Below, in pieces: positions 2,031 through 9,717 of a stretch of 9,915 nucleotides of DNA. Below the pieces are notes generated by a model, which saw only the letters and a program-made list of their open reading frames with translations, did no database searches and was not told the DNA's origin. Origin of the DNA: Halalkalibacterium halodurans (GTDB lineage: Bacteria > Bacillota > Bacilli > Bacillales > Bacillaceae_D); NCBI RefSeq assembly GCF_004376175.1, contig NZ_SNUY01000095.1, positions 1 to 9,915 of the forward strand. The letters run 5' to 3'. The position numbers were made by a program, and so were the translations under genes. Numbering within the stretch: position 1 is the stretch's first letter; each line of letters opens with the position of its first letter.

Positions 2031-3128
2031 TTATTTTCCGAATAAAGCCTTAAGTTTACTAATCAATGAATTGATAAACTTTTGTGTGGCTTCATTATAC
2101 ATGTATAAAGCAGTTCCTCCACCAACGGTGACAACTGATCCACCGATAATGAATAATGGCGTAGCAGGGAATTGCTTGTCTTCTTCTTCCTGTGTTTCCT
2201 CTTCTAAGATTTCTTCTTCTTCCTGCATTTCTTCTTCAATTTCTTCCACTTCTCCATTTTCTTCATTTCCTAGCAAAATATCAGCTTCTTCTTTTGTAAC
2301 TTCCTGTTCAATTCCTTCTGATTTGACAATAGCAAAATAGCGACCGTTCCTTTCAATGACTTCCGCTTCCAGTTCTAATAATTCATCGACTGTATAGATT
2401 TTCGCTTTTTCTTCTTGAGCTTCTACACTGTCATCGTCTTTATCCTCTATTTTTACGTTGTTGCTTCCAGTGTTATTACTAGAAGAACCACCATTACTAC
2501 TTTGAGTGCTATTACTAGATTGACTACTATTGTTTGAATTACTTCCGCTTTGTTTTGATTCCTCTTTTTTAGTACTTGGATTAGATGAACCCGTATTTGA
2601 TGACCCTGATCCTGAGTTATTATTTTTATTAGAGCTTTCTGATCTAGGTTTATCCTGTTTTTTTGGTTGTTCTTTTTTCTTATCTGGTGTTGGGCTAACC
2701 GGTTTTGGTTCTGGTTTTGGTTCTGGTTTTGGTTCTGGTTTTGGTTCTGGTTTTGGTTCTGGTTTTGGTTCTGGTTTTGGTTTATTTTGTTCTTTGACAA
2801 TAGTTGTGACAGTTAATATAAAAGTTCCTTGTTCAGACCCTTCTGCTACATAGACCGTCACTTTATCGCCATTATTCACTACCCCTTCATAGCTTCCAGT
2901 GAGATAAAATTGACCAGAGTTTGGTTCATATCCCCCTCTCACAAACTTAGCTAAAGCTCCTGTTGCTGACGCTCTATTATCCCCAGTGTGATCCGTAGTA
3001 ATGGTAATTGATGATGATCCAGGATTGTCTGGCGTGTAAAAAGTATTAGCAAGCGCTGAGTTAGATGATGACATCATTCCATAAAAAACAAATACCGTTA
3101 AAAGTAATACTTTTACTGTTTTTCTCAT
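2031..3128 (-). CDS. Secreted, C-terminally membrane-anchored stalk protein (365 aa) with PEPK repeats
   Basis: Signal peptide MRKTVKVLLLTVFVFYGMMSSSNSALA. A beta-rich domain of about 85 aa is followed by the (PEPK) linker, a Ser/Asn-rich tract and a Glu-rich segment. The C-terminus has a TM helix (PLFIIGGSVVTVGGGTALYMY) and a basic tail. No LPXTG motif. I place the start at ATG 3128 (AGGAAGGGA 9 nt upstream), because the predicted promoter at 3153-3181 would initiate downstream of the ATG at 3152. Confidence 0.85.
   Translation of the reverse strand: MRKTVKVLLLTVFVFYGMMSSSNSALANTFYTPDNPGSSSITITTDHTGDNRASATGALAKFVRGGYEPNSGQFYLTGSYEGVVNNGDKVTVYVAEGSEQGTFILTVTTIVKEQNKPKPEPKPEPKPEPKPEPKPEPKPEPKPVSPTPDKKKEQPKKQDKPRSESSNKNNNSGSGSSNTGSSNPSTKKEESKQSGSNSNNSSQSSNSTQSSNGGSSSNNTGSNNVKIEDKDDDSVEAQEEKAKIYTVDELLELEAEVIERNGRYFAIVKSEGIEQEVTKEEADILLGNEENGEVEEIEEEMQEEEEILEEETQEEEDKQFPATPLFIIGGSVVTVGGGTALYMYNEATQKFINSLISKLKALFGK
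2701..2781. repeat. Perfect 12-bp tandem repeat GGTTTTGGTTCT, 6 full units plus 9 nt
   Basis: Read directly from the sequence. It encodes KPEP on the minus strand. The unit length is a multiple of 3. Confidence 0.95.
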
Positions 3129-3152
3129 CTTATGCGATCCCTTCCTTTTCAT

Positions 3153-3198: not shown

Positions 3199-3642
3199 TT
3201 ATTCTCTAAAAACTACAACTTTTAAGGCGAACGCCAAGTTTATCAAAGCTGATTTTTTCTTTGTATAATAGGCTGTTCGGCTTATTCCGCATTTTTCCTG
3301 TATGACATAATCTGGTTCATCTTCTAAGTCTCTTGTTAAGTATCTTTTTATTATTAATTCTTTATCTTCTTTTTTTAATTTGTTTACACATTGGATTACC
3401 CACAGCAAGAAATTTTCAATTTCCTCTTTTTTATCAATAAAGCTCTCTATTTTACTGTGGAATTGATTAGAAAAGGTAGCATTGTGTTCAAGCGTTGATG
3501 TAATTGAGACAGATTCAAAATCATAACTCAAGGAGTACTGTTGATAATCAAATAATATCTTTTCTACTGCGTGTTTCGTTCTATTTACGTCCACTTTAGG
3601 TACTTTTTTAATGATGTTTTGCTTTTCTATTACTCCACCCAC
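3199..3642 (-). CDS. arpU: ArpU-family transcriptional regulator (phage late-gene type, sigma region-4-like)
   Basis: The 147-aa size, the N-terminal PKVDVNRTKHAVEKILFDYQQY pattern and the C-terminal ELIIKRYL...CGISRTAYYTKKKSALINLAFAL HTH match my recollection of the ArpU family. GTG start with AAGAGGTGG 6 nt upstream. Confidence 0.75.
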   Translation of the reverse strand: MGGVIEKQNIIKKVPKVDVNRTKHAVEKILFDYQQYSLSYDFESVSITSTLEHNATFSNQFHSKIESFIDKKEEIENFLLWVIQCVNKLKKEDKELIIKRYLTRDLEDEPDYVIQEKCGISRTAYYTKKKSALINLAFALKVVVFRE

Positions 3643-3672
3643 ACATTTCCACCTCTTTCACCATATTTCATC

Positions 3673-3690
3673 GTTTACTATAGTGGACAC
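3673..3690. promoter_or_regulatory. Operator-like imperfect palindrome, site 1 (GTTTACTATAGTGGACAC)
   Basis: Lies between the Cro-like stop and the ArpU start. It matches site 2 at 15 of 18 positions and has the half-site structure GTTYAC-TATA-GTRRAC. Confidence 0.4.
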
Positions 3691-3703
3691 TCAAACAAAA
3701 AAA

Positions 3704-3937
3704 TTAATCTACAGTAATCAAAAAAATCTCGTCTACGTCTTTTTTAAGACCACTTGCAATTTTTGTAGCTACAAGAGTTCCAGCTTTTGTTTTCCCTCGT
3801 AAAACTCTGATAAAATAAGAATGAGAAACACCAATATTTTGCGCAAATTGCCTTTTTGTTAGTCCCATTTTCGCAAGGGTTAGTTCTATTTTCATACTCA
3901 CATCTTTTTTCATAAGAAATTTAGCTCTCACCGCCAT
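3704..3937 (-). CDS. Cro-like XRE-family HTH regulator (63-77 aa depending on start)
   Basis: HTH pattern LTKRQFAQNIGVSHSYFIRVLRGKTKAGTLVATKIASGL. It is divergent from the larger XRE repressor. Alternative in-frame ATGs occur at 3913 and 3895. Confidence 0.8.
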   Translation of the reverse strand: MAVRAKFLMKKDVSMKIELTLAKMGLTKRQFAQNIGVSHSYFIRVLRGKTKAGTLVATKIASGLKKDVDEIFLITVD

Positions 3938-4003
3938 ACTCCTTTCCTACTTTTCAGTCAGGTCATATTTATTTCGTATCAGTACCATTATATTACTACA
4001 AAA

Positions 4004-4021
4004 GTTCACTATAGTAAACAC
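4004..4021. promoter_or_regulatory. Operator-like imperfect palindrome, site 2 (GTTCACTATAGTAAACAC)
   Basis: Lies in the divergent intergenic region. It sits 11 nt upstream of a minus-strand TATAAT (3992-3987) and 15 nt upstream of the plus-strand -35 candidate. Confidence 0.4.
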
Positions 4022-4036
4022 TTTTTAATCACTTTA

Positions 4037-4065
4037 TTGGACAATTTTTTTCATCGACTTATATT
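4037..4065 (+). promoter_or_regulatory. Sigma-A-type promoter candidate for the XRE repressor operon
   Basis: TTGGAC (4037-4042), a 17-nt spacer, then TATATT (4060-4065). Confidence 0.35.
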
Positions 4066-4133
4066 AAACAGCTTAAAGCCTTATAATTATTTGTTAGAAG
4101 CGTTTAAAGAAATCCGCTTGAAAGGTGATCACT

Positions 4134-4553
4134 ATGGAAAATAATTTTAGATTCGGGGAATATTTAAAAAGAAAAAGAAAAGAAAAGGGCTTTACGATTC
4201 GCAACTTAGCTTTAAAATCTGGTATATCCAAATCCTATATATCCATGCTTGAGAGAGGAGTAAAAAAGTACCCCTCTGCCCAAGTACTTAATAAATTAGC
4301 TAAACCTTTAGGCGTGACAGAACAGGAACTATTTAAGATTATCGGCTACATGGGAGAACACAATGTAGAAAAGCAAGAAGATAGTAAAGGTGCTATTACT
4401 ACAAGTGATAAAAATAATCATATAATTAATGAAGAAGCTAACGTATTCTTTTTTGATTTAGACGGATTATCTGAAACAGATATACAACAGATTAAAGATC
4501 ATATAGAATTTCTTAAACATAGAGCAAAAGATAAAAACAAAGGTAATGAATAA
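4134..4553 (+). CDS. XRE-family HTH repressor with C-terminal extension (ImmR/CI-like), 139 aa
   Basis: HTH pattern FGEYLKRKRKEKGFTIRNLALKSGISKSYISMLERGVKKYPSAQVLNKLAKPLGV. ATG at 4134 has GAAAGGTGA 5 nt upstream; the listed GTG at 4125 lies inside that SD. The C-terminal tail reads ...NVFFFDLDGLSETDIQQIKDHIEFLKHRAKDK. Confidence 0.85.
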   Translation: MENNFRFGEYLKRKRKEKGFTIRNLALKSGISKSYISMLERGVKKYPSAQVLNKLAKPLGVTEQELFKIIGYMGEHNVEKQEDSKGAITTSDKNNHIINEEANVFFFDLDGLSETDIQQIKDHIEFLKHRAKDKNKGNE

Positions 4554-4602
4554 CGGTATTCCTGTTAATCTTAAAAATAGTACTGAAATAAAGGGGACTA
4601 TT

Positions 4603-5142
4603 ATGTCAGAAAAGAGTGTTAGGTCAGTTAATGAGTCGAAATCATATAGAGTATCTACTTTTTATAAAATATGCTTTGAGACTGTAGTTAGTATTTATGG
4701 TAAACGAGATCCACTTACTGATGAACTAATAAGCTTATATTTTAAGGAACATTTCTCAGAACATTTTAATATTGACGATTTAAAACAATTGAATAAAACA
4801 TCTTTAGCTGAAAAAATGCTAGATGAATTGATTAGATATAATAAATCCTTTAACGAATTAAAATACATTAAAAAAAGTGATCGGATAACAAGATTAGAGT
4901 CAAATTTAAAATCTAAGTATGGAGAAATACCAAGAGTACGAGAAAATATACACTTTAGATTACTTCCCCATTATCAAAATTTCATTACTAATTTTGCAGA
5001 AGGTACAATAGCAGAAGTACTAGAACTTGCAATTGCTAACTATATTACTAATCATTGTAGTACTTTTGAGTACGAATTGATCAATTTATCTTTTCATGGT
5101 CATATTAAACGATTAAAAAAAGAAGAAAATAAGCCCCTATAA
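4603..5142 (+). CDS. Hypothetical protein, 179 aa, with a ribbon-helix-helix-like C-terminus
   Basis: ATG at 4603 with AAAGGGGA 5 nt upstream. The longer ORF from 4546 has no good SD but would overlap the XRE stop (ATGAATAA). The C-terminal IHFRLLPHYQNFITNFAEGTIAEVLELAIANYITNH fits a strand-helix-helix pattern. Confidence 0.6.
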   Translation: MSEKSVRSVNESKSYRVSTFYKICFETVVSIYGKRDPLTDELISLYFKEHFSEHFNIDDLKQLNKTSLAEKMLDELIRYNKSFNELKYIKKSDRITRLESNLKSKYGEIPRVRENIHFRLLPHYQNFITNFAEGTIAEVLELAIANYITNHCSTFEYELINLSFHGHIKRLKKEENKPL

Positions 5143-5157
5143 AATTCTTAGGGGCTT
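5131..5157. terminator. Shared hairpin terminator between convergent genes
   Basis: The 9-bp stem AAGCCCCTA (5131-5139) pairs with TAGGGGCTT (5149-5157). The minus strand has a T-rich tract after the stem (ATTTTCTTCTTTTTTT). The plus-strand tail (TAAATAT) is weaker. Confidence 0.65.
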
Positions 5158-5282
5158 TAAATATAGTCTACTATTGTTACCGTACTCGTTGGCGTAATTG
5201 TATGTTTACTAGCAAGGTTTTCTGTTTCCTCTCCGAATAGACAAAGACCGCTAATCAAAACAAGAAAAATCACTTTGTTCAT
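5157..5282 (-). CDS. phr: Phr-type secreted signalling pro-peptide, 41 aa (not in the ORF track)
   Basis: Hand translation gives MNKVIFLVLISGLCLFGEETENLASKHTITPTSTVTIVDYI. ATG at 5282 lies 13 nt after the rap stop. GAAGGGG sits 8 nt upstream and overlaps the rap TGA. An N-terminal signal-like hydrophobic segment is followed by a hydrophilic pro-region. Confidence 0.75.
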   Translation of the reverse strand: MNKVIFLVLISGLCLFGEETENLASKHTITPTSTVTIVDYI

Positions 5283-5295
5283 TTTTTCAACCCCT

Positions 5296-6375
5296 TCAAA
5301 TTAAATCATTTCTAGATTTAATCACTCGCTCACGTGCCGTTTGAGCTAAATCAAAGAATTCACACGCATGATCATATTGCTCACTATCCTTATAGTATTG
5401 AGCAATCACTAAAGCATATTCCTCAACGTAATTCCATAACCCTTTTTCAATAAAAAAATCAATTATTTTATTAAACTCTGTTTCCATTTCAAAATAATAA
5501 GAGTAATCAGGGTCATATAGTGCTTTTTGTACTCTTAGATGATATATATACTCATGATTACTTGTTTCTTTGCATACACCTATCGCTTTTTCATAATATT
5601 CATTTCCTGTATCTATATCATTAATTCTATAACATTCTCTTGAGAGTAGATAATAAGTTTTGATGAGCTGTTCTTTATCATTAGTTACAAATTCAAGTGC
5701 GTTTGTTAATTGCAAAACGGATTCTTTTGGTTTCCCTAATTTTGAGTATAAATGACCCAAATTATGATAGCATATACTTACATTGTCGTGATTTAACTTT
5801 TTATAAATTTTTAGAGCTTGATTGTAATGTAATTCACTCTCTTTTAATTGCTTTATTTCATAGTTATTATTAGCAATTACTATGTGACAATCTGCCATTC
5901 TCTTTAGTTTATTATTCTCTTTAAATATCTCGTAGGCTTTATATACATTTTTAATCGATAAAGTAATTTTATCAATCTCATAGTAAAGTGCAGATAAATT
6001 GTAATAAAACTCCCCTCGTTCCAAGGGATCAACCTTATTTAAAAATTTACTTGCCAGTTTAAAAAAGTACAGTGATTCCTCATACTCTGACTGATAAAAT
6101 TTAAATAGCGCATTAAAATAATGATATGAGAAGTTATAAAGCTTATCATCCTCAATATAGGGTAACATTAATTCTTGTGTTTTTTCGAACAAATGAAAGT
6201 CTTTTTTAAGTAAATAATATCGTGCTGTTACAACATAATAGTATTTTTTTTCAGAAGGATTAACAGGTGGTTTTGTAGATAATTCAGAGAAAAGTTTATC
6301 AGCTTCTGGGTTTTGATCCCTTATCAATACATTTAAAGTTTCAAGTTCGTTGAAAGAACTCTCTTTTATTATCAT
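5296..6375 (-). CDS. rap: Rap-family TPR quorum-sensing receptor (response-regulator aspartate phosphatase / anti-repressor family)
   Basis: At 359 aa it has no N-terminal HTH. Repeated TPR signatures include YFFKLASKF, GEFYYNLSALYY, CHIVIANNNYEIKQLKESELHYNQALKIY and ICYHNLGHLYSKLGKPKES. The C-terminal WNYVEEYALVIAQYYKDSEQYDHACEFF parallels B. subtilis Rap proteins as I recall them. ATG has AAAGGAGGG 5 nt upstream. Confidence 0.88.
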   Translation of the reverse strand: MIIKESSFNELETLNVLIRDQNPEADKLFSELSTKPPVNPSEKKYYYVVTARYYLLKKDFHLFEKTQELMLPYIEDDKLYNFSYHYFNALFKFYQSEYEESLYFFKLASKFLNKVDPLERGEFYYNLSALYYEIDKITLSIKNVYKAYEIFKENNKLKRMADCHIVIANNNYEIKQLKESELHYNQALKIYKKLNHDNVSICYHNLGHLYSKLGKPKESVLQLTNALEFVTNDKEQLIKTYYLLSRECYRINDIDTGNEYYEKAIGVCKETSNHEYIYHLRVQKALYDPDYSYYFEMETEFNKIIDFFIEKGLWNYVEEYALVIAQYYKDSEQYDHACEFFDLAQTARERVIKSRNDLI

Positions 6376-6569
6376 TTTGTCCCTCCTTTATCTAGGTTAA
6401 TTTCTAGATCCTTAAATATAATTAGTATAAATGTACTGTTTTAATCGGTCTACTTAATATTTCTCAAAAAAAAATAAGAATATCGCTTTATTCGGTCTTT
6501 TTCCTTAAATTCTTTCTATATTTATTTATTTTTCTTACATGGACATAAATTTATTTATTTTTTTTACTC

Positions 6570-6598
6570 TTGATATGTATTCTTGAATACAATATAAT
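6570..6598 (+). promoter_or_regulatory. Near-consensus sigma-A promoter with an embedded palindrome, upstream of the ImmA-like gene
   Basis: TTGATA (6570-6575), a 17-nt spacer, then TATAAT (6593-6598). The spacer contains the inverted repeat TGTATTC-TT-GAATACA (6576-6591). Confidence 0.6.
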
Positions 6599-6669
6599 CC
6601 TATTAGAGGAAAAAAATAATAAAATATGAGAATCATATTATTCGTATAAGGGAAAAAGGAGTAGTACTT

Positions 6670-7143
6670 ATGGATTATTTTCCGAACAGACTTGAATATT
6701 TAATATCACAAAGATTTAAACAAAAAGGCATATTGTTACCAGATGATCTTAAAATTGAAACTGTTGCAAATGCGTTTGACATTGAGATTTTTTACCACCA
6801 AACCTCATTTGCCTTCTTTCAAGGCAATTACAAAGCAATCACCTTAAACAAACATGTTGATAGTAGGCAACAGCATTATGAATTTTGGCACGAGTTAACT
6901 CATATATTAATACATACTGGCGATCAACTCAAAACAGCTAAATACATAAACAAATATCAAGAAATTGACGCAAATAAATGCGCTCTCTTTTGCGCCATGC
7001 CATATCATATGTTGCAATATATCGATTGGTATCAAGAAAATTTACTAGAACTACTTTTAGAACAATTTCATCTACCGAAGCACCAGCTAATCAATAGGTT
7101 GCAACAGATTCAGACAAAACAACAAAATATGGTCTTTAATTAA
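6670..7143 (+). CDS. ImmA/IrrE-family (COG2856, peptidase M78-like) zinc metalloprotease, 157 aa
   Basis: HExxH motif in FWHELTHILIH, and a downstream EIDANKCALFCAMPYHML that matches the family's E-x-EAN-x-FA-x-x-LL-MP pattern. AAAAGGAG lies 8 nt upstream of the ATG. Confidence 0.8.
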   Translation: MDYFPNRLEYLISQRFKQKGILLPDDLKIETVANAFDIEIFYHQTSFAFFQGNYKAITLNKHVDSRQQHYEFWHELTHILIHTGDQLKTAKYINKYQEIDANKCALFCAMPYHMLQYIDWYQENLLELLLEQFHLPKHQLINRLQQIQTKQQNMVFN

Positions 7144-7152
7144 TATAACAAA

Positions 7153-7184
7153 AAACAGGTAAAGTTTTTTAGCTTTACCTGTTT
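7153..7184. terminator. Bidirectional rho-independent terminator
   Basis: A 12-bp stem, AAACAGGTAAAG (7153-7164) with CTTTACCTGTTT (7173-7184). A-run and T-rich tracts flank it on both sides. It sits between the convergent stops at 7143 and 7193. Confidence 0.8.
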
Positions 7185-7192
7185 CGTTTATT

Positions 7193-7447
7193 TTATTTGT
7201 TCTTGAGAAATCCATAGATCCCTTTTTCTTGTTCGGTCAGTCCATGTTCCGCGTAGTATTCTGCAATTTCACCGACCAATTCATATAACTTAACATCTTT
7301 ACTCTTTGCTAAAGCCATTAGTTTTTTGTGTGTATCTTCTGGCACCTTCATTGTCTTTAATTTAACATCTTCTTTCGGTCGATTTACATTCATAAACGGA
7401 TTTTCCGCTTGAGAAGTAACTTTTTTTCTATTTAAACTTTTAGACAT
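7193..7447 (-). CDS. Ribbon-helix-helix ParG/ParB-like partition adaptor, 84 aa
   Basis: The ATG shares one base with the ParA stop (TAATG). A disordered basic N-terminus is followed by KTMKVPEDTHKKLMALAKSKDVKLYELVGEIAEYY, which fits an RHH pattern. GAAGGGG lies 10 nt upstream. Confidence 0.7.
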   Translation of the reverse strand: MSKSLNRKKVTSQAENPFMNVNRPKEDVKLKTMKVPEDTHKKLMALAKSKDVKLYELVGEIAEYYAEHGLTEQEKGIYGFLKNK

Positions 7448-8253
7448 TAAACTTCAACCCCTTCTAACTTCTTAATTCTCATTAACATTTCATCTAAGAC
7501 ATTATTATACATGCCTAATACTTTTAAATCATGATGATCCTCTTCTGTGATTCCGTTAACATCAAACCTTTTGATACGCTCCCTGATCGATATATGCGCT
7601 TTGAATAGATCCTCTTCAAAAAGTTTCTCAGCTTCAGAAATAATGAAATTGTCTACTGTTCCATCCTTCTTCATCAAAACAGGCACAATACCGATTAAGT
7701 CAATTTTGGCATGGTAATTATCGATCATATCCTGTAGATATGGAATAAATTTTTCACTAGCCGACAAAGATCGTTCGTGTGTTTGCATTACTATCATCAC
7801 AAAATCACTAGACACGACAGCATTATTAGTAAAGTCAGAAATTGTAGGTGGCACATCAATAAAAATGTAATCATAAGTTGACTTAAGAGGTGCTAAAAGA
7901 AAGTCAACAAAATAAGCACGTTTATAATTGTCGTCTTTCGCTTCTTTATTAAGCAGGAATGGGAAAGCAACTAAGTCTAAGTCAGAAGGTAGTAAATCTA
8001 AATTTTCTTTTATTTTTACGATTGCTTTTGTTAGGTTTTTATCAGCCATTGCTTGATACAATGTAGTATCTAAACGCTCTAAATTTGCTGTTCTTGCAAG
8101 TAGATCAGTTGCATTTGCCTGTGGGTCGAGATCTAAAACAAGGACTCTCTCCCCTCTTTGAGCAAGTAAATAAGAAAGTAAAACGGTAGTGGTTGTTTTT
8201 CCCACACCTCCTTTAAAATTGGCTACATTGATTACTTTAGCTGCTGCGTTCAT
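7447..8253 (-). CDS. parA: ParA/Soj-family partition ATPase (deviant Walker A), 268 aa
   Basis: KGGVGKTTT deviant Walker A, VLVLDLDPQANAT and a Walker B-like YIFIDVPP. The preferred start is ATG 8253 (AAAGGGTG 6 nt upstream), not the listed GTG at 8286. Confidence 0.9.
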   Translation of the reverse strand: MNAAAKVINVANFKGGVGKTTTTVLLSYLLAQRGERVLVLDLDPQANATDLLARTANLERLDTTLYQAMADKNLTKAIVKIKENLDLLPSDLDLVAFPFLLNKEAKDDNYKRAYFVDFLLAPLKSTYDYIFIDVPPTISDFTNNAVVSSDFVMIVMQTHERSLSASEKFIPYLQDMIDNYHAKIDLIGIVPVLMKKDGTVDNFIISEAEKLFEEDLFKAHISIRERIKRFDVNGITEEDHHDLKVLGMYNNVLDEMLMRIKKLEGVEV

Positions 8254-8320
8254 ATTATACACCCTTTCAACTTTTGGTTTGTACACTAATTTTACTACAT
8301 TTATTAATAATAATTCAAGT

Positions 8321-8347
8321 AGTATTTTTAGTAATTTGAGTATTATA
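8321..8347. repeat. Three phased 9-bp direct repeats (AGTATTTTT, AGTAATTTG, AGTATTATA) upstream of parA
   Basis: Read directly from the sequence. They overlap a minus-strand TATAAT (8347-8342) about 90 nt upstream of the parA ATG. The region is AT-rich, so a chance occurrence is possible. Confidence 0.3.
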
Positions 8348-8407
8348 CCTAATACCCTAAGTCAGGTTGTATTATTCTATAATTATCAGGAAAGACTGCT
8401 GGTAATA

Positions 8408-8416
8408 TGTTATAAT
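8408..8416 (+). promoter_or_regulatory. Extended -10 promoter element (TGtTATAAT) for the toxin-antitoxin pair
   Basis: TG at 8408-8409, then one nt, then TATAAT at 8411-8416, about 25 nt upstream of the ATG at 8441. No good -35 is present. Confidence 0.4.
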
Positions 8417-8440
8417 ATAAAAAAGAAAGGAAGTGATCAG

Positions 8441-8596
8441 ATGATCAGAAAACGCAAAAAGATCGCAAATAGACCGGAAACACTGAAAGAAGTTACCACA
8501 AGAGAGGATGAAGCGATCAAAGTAGGAAAAGCTTACGATTTTTTGTTTGAAGGGGAAAATAACGATTATGACGAAGAGTACAACGATTACATCTAA
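8441..8596 (+). CDS. Candidate antitoxin, 51 aa, basic N-terminus and acidic C-terminus
   Basis: MIRKRKKIANRPETLKEVTTREDEAIKVGKAYDFLFEGENNDYDEEYNDYI. AAAGGAAGTGA lies 4 nt upstream of the ATG. It sits immediately upstream of, and overlapping, a MazF-fold gene. Only this C-terminal part of track ORF 8189-8596 is credible. Confidence 0.55.
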   Translation: MIRKRKKIANRPETLKEVTTREDEAIKVGKAYDFLFEGENNDYDEEYNDYI

Positions 8597-8963
8597 TGAA
8601 GTAATGAAACAAGGACACTTGTGGGTTGCCCCCATATGGTCACACACAGCTAATAAGTTTGTTGGTCGTCCTATTGTCATCACAGGAAATGATTCAGCAA
8701 ATGATAAGTTAGGTCTTATTGTGAATTTTGTTACTCGGACACCTGCCCGAAATGACTTTGACGTTGACCTAAAACATTGGAAATATGCAGGATTAAACTC
8801 TCCCTCTAGGGTTCGAACATCCAAACCGTTAACGATACTAAAAAAAGATCTAAATCAAACCCTATTTGAAAGAAATGGTGTTAGACAACCTAGAGGATAC
8901 ATAGGAAAATTACACGAAGAAGATTTAGCCAATGTTCTTGAAATGTGTAGGCTCATTTACTAA
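8568..8963 (+). CDS. PemK/MazF-family (CcdB/MazF fold) toxin
   Basis: KQGHLWVAPI...VGRPIVITGND aligns by eye with B. subtilis EndoA/MazF KRGDVYFADL...GVRPVLVIQND. Later GLNSPSRVRTSKPLTILKKDL...IGKLHEEDLANVLEM parallels ERDSVILLEQIRTIDKQRL...ITHLDDEMMDKVDEAL. The start is ambiguous: ATG 8568 (131 aa), or ATG 8604 (119 aa, 7 nt after the antitoxin stop). Confidence 0.75.
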   Translation: MTKSTTITSNEVMKQGHLWVAPIWSHTANKFVGRPIVITGNDSANDKLGLIVNFVTRTPARNDFDVDLKHWKYAGLNSPSRVRTSKPLTILKKDLNQTLFERNGVRQPRGYIGKLHEEDLANVLEMCRLIY

Positions 8964-9022: not shown

Positions 9023-9649
9023 CTATGTAACCTTATCTATCCATTCTTTAAGAGTGGTAGTGATTGATTGCGAGTTAATCTTAACTTCATCAAACAAGTA
9101 TTGTATAAGCTCAACCCATCCAAACTTCTCCTGATTAGGATTTTGACTCTCAATGTACTTAATCACCTTTTCTAATTCTTCCATTCTCCTTTTATCCAAA
9201 TTCCCTTGTATAAACTCTTTAACAAAAGAATTTATAATCTCAGCATGTTTAAAACTAAACTCAAGTAACAATGCCACACATTTAGATGGCGTAACATCCA
9301 GAGCAAATGCAAGGGATTTAATTTTTTCAATATCTTGTTGTTTAAATCTTATAGTGATTCTAGATGTATTCCCCTGTAGCTGTAGTTTCTGTAGTGATTC
9401 CCTCTTCACATCGCCAATATAAAAAACATTATTATTAAATGTATAATTTCTCCGCATATGTGGAGATAATGATTCTATAACTTTATCGCTTTCTAAACAC
9501 AGTAAAGTTAATGCTTCTGCAACATCTTTTATAGGCGTGTTAGTGATGTAACTCAATCTATCGATTGATTCCTTTAGGTTGTCTAAAATTGTAGGCTTAC
9601 AATCAATTTTTTTATCAGCACGAACTTTTCTAACTACCTCTTCCCTCAC
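9023..9649 (-). CDS. Hypothetical protein, 208 aa, with two RHH-like segments
   Basis: The preferred start is GTG 9649, with GGAGG 8 nt upstream; the listed GTG at 9664 is itself part of that SD. The segments KPTILDNLKESIDRLSYITNTPIKDVAEALTLLCLE and RITIRFKQQDIEKIKSLAFALDVTPSKCVALLLEF both fit a strand-helix-helix pattern. Confidence 0.6.
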   Translation of the reverse strand: MREEVVRKVRADKKIDCKPTILDNLKESIDRLSYITNTPIKDVAEALTLLCLESDKVIESLSPHMRRNYTFNNNVFYIGDVKRESLQKLQLQGNTSRITIRFKQQDIEKIKSLAFALDVTPSKCVALLLEFSFKHAEIINSFVKEFIQGNLDKRRMEELEKVIKYIESQNPNQEKFGWVELIQYLFDEVKINSQSITTTLKEWIDKVT

Positions 9650-9717
9650 ATTAAAAACCTCCACAAAAAAATTCAGATTAAGAACAGTGTCCCTAAGTCC
9701 TAGATTTATTTATTAGT

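Follow-up and report, generated by a model that had tools for sequence, protein, structure and literature searches.

An Rco-family repressor, a Rap-Phr pair and an intact ImmA/IrrE-type protease in a putative conjugation control region of a Halalkalibacterium halodurans plasmid

Introduction

The control of conjugation in Gram-positive bacteria rests on very few models. On plasmid pLS20 the Rap protein binds the repressor directly, which results in a reversible switch, whereas in ICEBs1 the Rap protein needs a protease and the switch is irreversible, with the activation of the protease ImmA by RapI being unexplained (PMC8014075). The genes rap and phr of pLS20 form one operon that is convergent on the repressor gene rco, which in turn is divergent from the conjugation operon (PMC8557374). 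Here we describe a stretch of 9,915 nucleotides from Halalkalibacterium halodurans (contig NZ_SNUY01000095.1 of assembly GCF_004376175.1, forward strand; hereafter the window) in which one small region carries the genes of an Rco-type repressor, of Rap and Phr, and of an ImmA-type protease that is intact, which would make reversible and proteolytic logic comparable on a single repressor.

A sequence-only reading of this DNA had proposed a switch made of four ICEBs1-type parts in an order that matches neither described system. All of its gene calls are present in the list of open reading frames (ORFs) of the window, and the profile searches that it had suggested (M78, HTH_3, Rap/TPR and the ArpU TIGRFAM) placed all four proteins in their families. 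An XRE repressor, Rap-Phr and an ImmA/IrrE-family protease are indeed there, while the repressor proved not to be ImmR-like, and the order is less foreign than it had appeared, since the geometry of rco, rap-phr and operon is that of pLS20 and the association of rco with the M78 gene is that of pBS72-type plasmids. The proposed survey of gene neighbourhoods recovered both modules, though separately, with the rco-M78 pair recurring on pBS72-type plasmids and the pairing of the ORF at 4603-5142 with Rap genes elsewhere.

Our literature search turned up no account of a system that joins an Rco-family repressor to an ImmA-type protease and to Rap-Phr, none of an Rco-ImmA combination, and no paper on the regulation of pBS72 conjugation. 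As Rco-type repressor, Rap-Phr and conjugation layout are already known, their combination with an intact protease and an undescribed, predicted ribbon-helix-helix protein is a variation, and the known categories are left unchanged by the locus.

Results and Discussion

We read the locus, with moderate confidence, as the conjugation control region of a pBS72-like H. halodurans plasmid that is built from two nested modules and works as follows. The ancestral module would consist of an Rco-family repressor gene that is divergent from the conjugation operon and paired with a gene for an ImmA/IrrE-type protease, whereas the second module, a cassette of phr, rap and the gene of a predicted tandem ribbon-helix-helix protein, would have been placed between the genes of the first. 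The repressor would oligomerize via its tail and bind AGTGAA-type palindromes at 4004-4019 and 3673-3688 as well as weaker sites, thereby turning the operon off, while peptide-free Rap would bind a DNA-binding partner, either the Rco-like or the adjacent ribbon-helix-helix protein, and turn it on. Secreted and re-imported Phr with the core KHTITP would switch Rap off when donors are abundant, and the intact M78 protein would open a further route, separate and irreversible, in which it cuts the repressor between the DNA-binding and the oligomerization part.

Sequence comparison assigns the XRE protein encoded at 4134-4553 on the plus strand to the Rco family of pLS20. Its ORF spans 4125-4553, and the likely start is the ATG at 4134, which has an AGGTGA motif 5 nt upstream and yields 139 aa, the same length as in the gene call on contig L004 (comparison loci are given as L and a number). 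The XRE helix-turn-helix (HTH) domain (HTH_3, 57.6 bits; HTH_19, 52.4 bits) is followed by a linker of about 30 residues and a TetDloop-like tail, which bears out the earlier description of a 139-aa HTH protein with a C-terminal extension. Among all solved structures the best match is 8BNY (E 8.7e-21), the Rco protein of the conjugative plasmid pLS20 from Bacillus subtilis (PMC9986798), to which residues 7-75 align. The tail FFFDLDGLSETDIQQIKDHIEFLKHR, beginning with FFFDLDGLSETD, aligns to both TetD repeats of Rco, LFDLTGLTEASINQIQNQIDQLK and RFFDVTGLSEKDIERVKEEIELLKIR, the second of which is the crystallized TetDloop, a p53-like strand-turn-helix tetramerization domain mediating DNA looping (PMC9986798). 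Hydrophobic strand, Gly turn and helix of this motif are matched by the tail at the sequence level, and the tail probably represents a tetramerization motif as well. On plasmids, the XRE proteins of pCR3, CP123978 and pBS72 come closest with 38-44% identity, followed by the Rco proteins of the pLS20 family with 35-37%. The motif F.FDL.GL..DI...I..LK.RA shows no variation among the window protein and those of the pBS72 type, and is also kept by the pLS20-family Rco proteins. From its homology to pLS20 Rco and its gene position, the protein would act as repressor of the conjugation operon. When metagenomes were scanned with the repressor alignment, generic XRE HTH domains (residues ~9-70) were all that matched, and the scan was uninformative on Rco-family neighbourhoods.

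With ImmR (IMMR_BACSU, confirmed by exact look-up), the repressor shares just 25% identity, limited to the HTH domain. ImmA cleaves ImmR at F95-M96 (PMC8960796), and the tail had been likened to this cleavage region. A multiple alignment does set LLF-MNDG of ImmR over VFFFDLDG of the window, but in local alignment against the ImmR tail 4145 of 5000 shuffles reach the score observed for the window tail, and 530 of 2000 that for the pBS72 tail. As the local score is no better than that of shuffles, the resemblance is no evidence, and the FFF stretch was rejected as an ImmR-like cleavage site.

Two candidate operators accompany the repressor gene. The divergent promoter region holds palindrome B, GTTCACTATAGTAAAC, at 4004-4019, which was detected both as an inverted repeat and in a search with GTTCACTATAGTGAAC. 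Palindrome A, GTTTACTATAGTGGAC, at 3673-3688 in the gap between the HTH and arpU genes, was detected as a match to GTTCACTATAGTGAAC. When up to three mismatches are allowed, this query has two matches in the window versus 0.05 expected, and one of 200 shuffles reaches two. Weaker copies of the palindrome are located at 4029-4048 and 4129-4148, the latter overlapping the repressor start codon. AGTGAA, the half-site of the 16-bp palindromes, also forms the core of the Rco box CAGTGAAA of pLS20 (PMC8014075). CP123978 and pBS72 have comparable palindromes (TTTACTAAAGTAAA; TTCACT..AGTAAA) in the gap that separates their HTH and arpU genes, together with AGTGAAA boxes upstream of their rco-like genes. 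With AGTGAA-type palindromes at both sites and a repressor gene divergent from the HTH/ArpU operon, the arrangement is like that of pLS20, and the Rco-like protein may bind the palindromes and loop across the 331 bp that separate them.

The likeness to pLS20 thus comprises a homologous repressor with XRE HTH and TetDloop tail, an operator core resembling the Rco box, a Rap protein whose closest solved relative is the Rap of pLS20, and the same geometry, with rap-phr convergent on rco, which is itself divergent from the conjugation operon. There are also several differences. The window has an extra ribbon-helix-helix gene between rco and phr and carries an intact M78 gene beyond rap, while pLS20 gave no match to the M78 protein; its intergenic region measures 196 bp versus about 600 bp in pLS20, and its candidate operators are palindromes 331 bp apart in contrast to the direct-box clusters of pLS20, which are 75 bp apart. 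The operon of the window starts with HTH and ArpU genes, that of pLS20 with gene 28, and the partition system of the window is ParA/PrgP-like. We considered ArpU as a counterpart of pLS20 gene 28 and rejected it, as the two have no similarity.

Judged by homology of its genes, the minus-strand operon is the head of a pBS72-like conjugation operon. Its first gene (3704-3937) encodes a Cro-like HTH protein of 77 aa (HTH_3, 28.5 bits) that is 36% identical to the product of the first operon gene of pCR3 and CP123978. The second (3199-3642) encodes an ArpU-family transcription regulator of 147 aa, which matches TIGR01637 with 62.6 bits (cut-off 43.1) over model positions 2-134 of 136, matches phrog_248 'transcriptional activator' with an E of 3e-22 and is 33% identical to the ArpU of pBS72; both genes agree with what had been read from the letters. 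They are followed by the gene of a secreted surface protein of 373 aa (2031-3152) that contains a PEPK repeat and has a membrane anchor at its C-terminus. Its N-terminal domain has homologues in the pBS72 LPXTG protein and in two more products of the same pBS72 operon. Further downstream, a 133-aa gene product (311-712) is 35% identical (E 1.5e-21) to that of pBS72 gene 16570-16968, which lies two genes upstream of the VirD4 gene, and a small 79-aa product (66-305) shows 42% identity over 57 aa to that of pBS72 gene 16961-17317, directly upstream of the VirD4 gene. The pBS72 operon continues for 30 kb with VirD4, VirB11, VirB4, a cell-wall hydrolase and a MobP2 relaxase. Of the earlier statement that the output is an ArpU-type regulator plus a surface protein, the genes stand, while an output confined to these two does not, since the operon start is of the conjugation type.

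Where its pBS72 counterpart carries an LPXTG motif, the surface protein ends with a hydrophobic anchor, and neither an LPXTG motif nor a sortase gene was seen in the ORF list of the window. Its repeats (~2640-2740) form a run of PEPK units, the protein also has a Ser/Asn-rich region, and other frames of the same DNA yield long artefactual ORFs with NQ and GFGS repeats.

Among plasmids, those of the pBS72 type provide the nearest relatives of the locus. pBS72, pCR3 and CP123978 share the order ParA, replication gene, M78-like and rco-like pair, divergent HTH gene, ArpU gene, LPXTG protein gene and sortase gene; rco-like and M78-like genes are about 95 nt apart on these three and on a B. rugosus contig, and two further plasmids have protein matches to both the Rco-like and the M78 protein. 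The window agrees with this type in the order of the proposed ancestral module (rco-like, M78, divergent operon) and of the operon head, and it has there the closest homologues of its repressor (38-44%), M78 protein (30-36%) and ArpU (33%, pBS72), to which a ParA with 56-59% identity on pCR3, CP123978 and the B. rugosus contig can be added. It differs from them in lacking a sortase gene and an LPXTG motif. Their rco-like and M78-like genes are adjacent, with M78-like products devoid of the His, Glu and Glu residues (KLFSH versus HELTH), and no rap-phr pair occupies the gap between the two genes.

The M78 gene itself is located on the plus strand at 6670-7143 and encodes the 157-aa HExxH protein of ImmA/IrrE type that had been noted before, now supported by PF06114 with 35.3 bits (cut-off 22) and by phrog_87 'metallo-protease' (E 1e-13). 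HELTH at residues 74-78 and the third-ligand residue E98 in QEIDAN align to HELGH and LEHQAS of ICEBs1 ImmA, and likewise to HELCH and QExQAN of three plasmid ImmA proteins in classic XRE-ImmA-integrase modules. With 17% identity to ICEBs1 ImmA, the protein is, as far as sequence tells, a family member and not an orthologue of this enzyme. A word-indexed protein search returned only the M78 protein itself, and sequence comparison with solved structures gave only spurious matches to designed TPR proteins. From its ImmA/IrrE family and the conserved gene pair, the M78 protein would act as an anti-repressor that cleaves the repressor.

The M78-like proteins encoded directly after the rco-like genes of pCR3, CP123978, pBS72 and the B. 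rugosus contig (L001:2138-2632, L002:6001-6495, L003:6001-6507 and L009:8001-8504), which are the closest homologues of the window protein, read KLFSH or KLFAH in place of HExxH and carry D or S at the third ligand, with HExxH found nowhere in them; some are annotated as ImmA/IrrE metallo-endopeptidases. By their sequences they cannot be ordinary metalloproteases and look like pseudo-enzymes kept beside the repressor gene. Among the rco-associated M78-like proteins only the window copy looks catalytically competent, and it is separated from the repressor gene by 2.1 kb and three genes, whereas its closest homologues adjoin orthologous repressor genes. The earlier view that the protease gene stands apart from the repressor gene is supported, and the M78 gene has a promoter-like site of its own, TTGATA-17-TATAAT at 6570-6598 (plus strand). 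With 11 of 12 consensus matches this site is the best of the region, but it is a consensus match only, as the number of promoter-like sites in the region is not above that of shuffles.

This apparently separate transcription, the relaxed or changed function that the dead pBS72-type homologues suggest for the lineage, and the small number of relatives (nine plasmid records by tblastn and a single locus in a reference genome scan with the M78 alignment) would all suit an M78 protein that stands outside the switch, either as a leftover or in another role, for example in a defence or toxin-antitoxin-like XRE/COG2856 pair that has lost its partner. We consider this improbable: the window copy keeps every catalytic motif and a full-length frame, its more distant homologues belong to classic XRE-ImmA-integrase immunity modules, and its closest homologues have the rco-like gene as their sole conserved neighbour.

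On the minus strand, 5296-6375 encodes a Rap-family TPR receptor of 359 aa (TPR_12, 54.7 bits; phrog_5208, E 3e-47), in which the profile search found no HTH domain. It matches seven different solved Raps with E values from 3e-19 to 7e-8, the best being the Rap of pLS20 (6T3H/6T46, E 3.2e-19), followed by RapF (1.5e-17), while RapI is reached with 5.2e-9. RapH_N (PF18801) has no match in the protein, the length of which leaves room for a three-helix effector domain. The Rap matches 797 plasmid records, nearly all of them Bacillus Raps, and its closest relatives, in L010, L095, L098 and L110, are 37-42% identical; a word-indexed protein search returned one relative. Following the Rap family and the examples of pLS20 and ICEBs1, it would be a peptide-inhibited activator of transfer.

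The phr gene (5157-5282, minus strand) starts 13 nt downstream of rap and encodes a secreted pro-peptide of 41 aa with a hydrophobic N-terminus. Homologous small ORFs follow three related Raps, as found by tblastn and locus comparison, and together with the profile and structure matches of the Rap they support the convergent rap-phr pair called in the sequence-only reading. The core region of the window Phr, ASKHTITPTSTVTIVDYI, contains SKHTITP, the L010 Phr has two copies of AKHTITP, one internal and one C-terminal, and the L095 Phr reads LAKHTVLPYSSHYYYI with the core AKHTVLP, so that (A/S)KHT(I/V)(T/L)P is common to the window and the small ORFs downstream of the Raps of L010 and L095. Because the small ORFs that follow the closest Raps have this core too, the mature peptide of the window is likely internal (KHTITP core) and not C-terminal, and the C-terminal peptide that had been proposed is probably the wrong one. 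A hairpin between the convergent units (5131-5157), with a 9-bp stem AAGCCCCTA/TAGGGGCTT found as inverted repeat I3, has a T-rich run after the stem on the minus strand and is likely the terminator of rap-phr; a simple terminator scan did not flag it.

Two Rap-related loci may be mentioned here. L010 belongs to a conjugative element, the assembly of which carries the label Streptococcus agalactiae, and its Phr (L010:11098-11256) is a tandemly duplicated pheromone pro-peptide beside a Rap that is 40% identical to that of the window. pBS72 has only a distant Rap-like TPR protein of 413 aa (L008:41927-43168; 91927-93168 of the record), 21% identical to the window Rap, the gene of which adjoins a histidine kinase/response regulator pair and lies about 10 kb from the rco-like/M78-like genes across the record origin.

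The gene between repressor and phr, previously listed as an unknown ORF, turned out to be no bystander, as its family recurs beside Rap genes. The ORF spans 4546-5142 on the plus strand and encodes 198 aa from ATG 4546 or 179 aa from ATG 4603; the latter start, 50 nt after the repressor stop codon on the same strand, is the likely one, with AAAGGGG upstream and a library representative that is also 179 aa long. Neither Pfam nor NCBIfam has a family for the window ORF, no relative has a Pfam family, and tblastn against plasmids gave no match, while an exhaustive HMMER search retrieved 28 relatives among 1.84 billion representatives. A single-sequence fold was unusable, with a predicted local distance difference test (pLDDT) value of 35.6, whereas AlphaFold2 with the family alignment reached a pLDDT of 89.7 and a predicted template modelling score (pTM) of 0.84. 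In this model two strand-helix-helix units (strands 32-37 and 132-137) are joined by three helices, and the product is predicted to be a tandem ribbon-helix-helix protein. A fold search of the model against the PDB and BFVD returned nothing significant (best E 0.58 and 0.13), with weak and only suggestive matches to ribbon-helix-helix proteins, to NikA and to F-plasmid relaxosome chains.

Nine relatives and the window give ten loci in which the context of this family could be compared, and a Rap gene lies within about 5 kb of the family member in five of them. Four of these five, L095, L098 and L110 among them, have a Rap with 37-42% identity to the window Rap. The window has its Rap adjacent and convergent to the ORF; in L095/L096 a 38% identical Rap with phr is likewise convergent, with an integrase on the other side, and in L110 a convergent Rap of 37% identity is followed by a small gene and ParA. 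The Rap of L098 (42%, with phr) is 5 kb off, and in L107 the adjacent Rap belongs to another subfamily, is encoded on the same strand and has a phr of its own. No Rap is found within 6-7 kb in L101, L105 and L108, and in L099 and L103 the contig ends just past the family gene. Outside the window, none of the Rap-containing loci has an Rco-like or M78 homologue in the sequence examined.

With regard to composition, the guanine plus cytosine (G+C) content of 4500-6500 is 26-31% (26-28% in three of four 500-nt windows) versus 31-33% on the flanks. We infer that ORF, phr and rap are one unit, which entered an rco-M78 pair by insertion or, as an equivalent reading, was lost from the pBS72 type.

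Such a mobile cassette could also be a system of its own, acting on the ORF product or on host regulators, with the Rco-like and M78 proteins alone controlling the operon. Plasmid-borne Raps acting on host regulators are well established. The lower G+C content of the cassette, the joint occurrence of the ORF family with this Rap subfamily in L095, L098 and L110 without Rco-like or M78 genes in the sequence examined, and the Rap of another subfamily adjoining an ORF relative in L107 all speak for such independence. We nevertheless find it rather unlikely, as the cassette occupies the position of rap-phr in pLS20, convergent on an Rco-family gene, and the ORF follows rco so closely on the same strand, with no terminator-like site in the 50-nt gap, that the two are probably co-transcribed.

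In L110, the stretch 4825-8954 on a 3.6-Mb contig (GCA_005887555.1) comprises integrase, ORF relative, convergent Rap, small gene and ParA with transposases on the flanks, and it looks like a plasmid-derived element within a chromosome-sized contig. No phr is visible with its Rap, which has a hairpin instead and looks like an orphan.

Within the two-module reading, Rap may act on one of several partners. A direct action on the Rco-like protein, favoured by the pLS20 homologies and geometry, and an action on the ribbon-helix-helix protein, favoured by the occurrence of the closest Raps with relatives of the ORF and without Rco, are both tentative possibilities to which we give the same weight. 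A host response regulator as target appears improbable, and for any other target we see a slimmer chance still.

That Rap acts through the M78 protease is in our view improbable, and so is the complete ICEBs1-type cascade of the sequence-only reading, in which peptide-free Rap would stimulate the M78 protein to cleave the XRE repressor and the protease would be needed for induction. ICEBs1 is a precedent for a Rap acting through an ImmA protease (PMC8014075), and the window resembles it in having the same three protein families plus a peptide gene, with all three protein types in one 3-kb stretch, a repressor gene divergent from the transfer genes and an M78 protein with intact HExxH and Glu motifs; moreover, the rco-like/M78-like pair is conserved on related plasmids. 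The parts nevertheless differ from their ICEBs1 namesakes one by one. The repressor is of the Rco family, 25% identical to ImmR in the HTH domain only and with a tail not significantly like the F95-M96 region, the M78 protein is just 17% identical to ImmA, and the Rap matches that of pLS20 (E 3e-19) far better than it matches RapI (E 5e-9). In ICEBs1 immR and immA overlap with int directly after them, whereas repressor and protease genes of the window are three genes apart, the M78 gene with its separate promoter-like site is divergent from rap, and the window contains no integrase or excisionase. A poor RapI match, closest Raps that have no M78 gene nearby and a repressor without an ImmR-like site weaken a route from Rap through M78, and by sequence the locus shares the protein families of ICEBs1 without being orthologous to it.

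Several observations weigh against the two-module reading that we prefer. The identity of the Rap to that of pLS20 is 26% over residues 70-351, and its N-terminal effector region (residues 1-69) does not align to the Rap of pLS20. The closest Raps sit in loci without an Rco-like protein, which weakens the direct step from Rap to Rco, and L010, with one of these close Raps, has no relative of the 4603-5142 ORF within 10 kb. Since the M78-like proteins adjacent to rco-like genes are catalytically degenerate, the adjacency of the two genes does not prove a protease-substrate relation. The charged tetramer interface of Rco has a REL motif, with Arg, Glu at +4 and Leu at +7, for which hydrophobic interfaces are described as an alternative (PMC9986798). 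This motif is not conserved in the window repressor, where Q, H and F occupy the aligned positions, although its loss does not exclude oligomerization given that alternative (PMC9986798). Operators and promoters were assigned from consensus and repeat matches only, the order of insertion is derived from a handful of plasmids, and binding, cleavage and expression of all parts are predictions.

If all lines are joined, the locus might be an intermediate of the two Bacillus paradigms, in which one Rco-family looping repressor is under reversible Rap-Phr control and under irreversible ImmA-type cleavage near the TetDloop. The ribbon-helix-helix family would then be a new class of Rap-controlled DNA-binding partners of several integrative and conjugative elements, and the dead M78 homologues of pBS72-type plasmids would be repressor-binding pseudo-enzymes. 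We regard this joint picture as rather doubtful. Of wider use beyond the locus are the predicted tandem ribbon-helix-helix family that recurs beside Rap genes on mobile elements, and the Bacillus plasmids whose ImmA-like repressor partner has lost its catalytic residues.

Plasmid Backbone and Neighbouring Genes

That the switch sits beside partition genes and a toxin-antitoxin pair on a replicon had been noted from the letters, and agrees with the ParA/PrgP-like and PemK proteins found and with the plasmid-like character of the DNA. The partition genes (7193-8286, minus strand) encode ParA, with 142.5 bits to AAA_31 and an E of 1e-53 to the PrgP model, and a small PrgO-like protein that scores 27.7 bits with the PrgO model, under its cut-off. 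In the gap between the M78 gene and the partition operon, a hairpin with a stem of 13-14 pairs and a T run on both strands (7152-7185) resembles a bidirectional terminator. Among the plasmid and phage records searched no near-identical DNA was found, and Rfam and tRNA scans of the window gave no matches. The G+C content of the whole window is about 31-32%, while that of the H. halodurans chromosome is near 44%. The lower value fits a recently acquired plasmid with relatives in hosts of the Bacillus subtilis group.

A PemK/MazF-type toxin is encoded at 8441-8963 on the plus strand (24.0 bits with Pfam, barely over the cut-off of 23.1), and its protein differs in one residue from that of contig L004. 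The gene 5' of it, called as 51 aa on that contig (4575-4730), is the presumed antitoxin, the acidic C-terminus of which corresponds to the end of the 8189-8596 ORF in the window.

At 9023-9664 on the minus strand, a 213-aa ORF has as its sole family match a weak PHROG of unknown function, and shows by eye two ribbon-helix-helix-like stretches (TILDNLKESIDRLSY... and RITIRFKQQDIEKIKSLAF...). It is 45% identical to the L108 gene 7773-8396, which is located about 1.3 kb from the L108 relative of the 4603-5142 ORF, and the two families may travel together.

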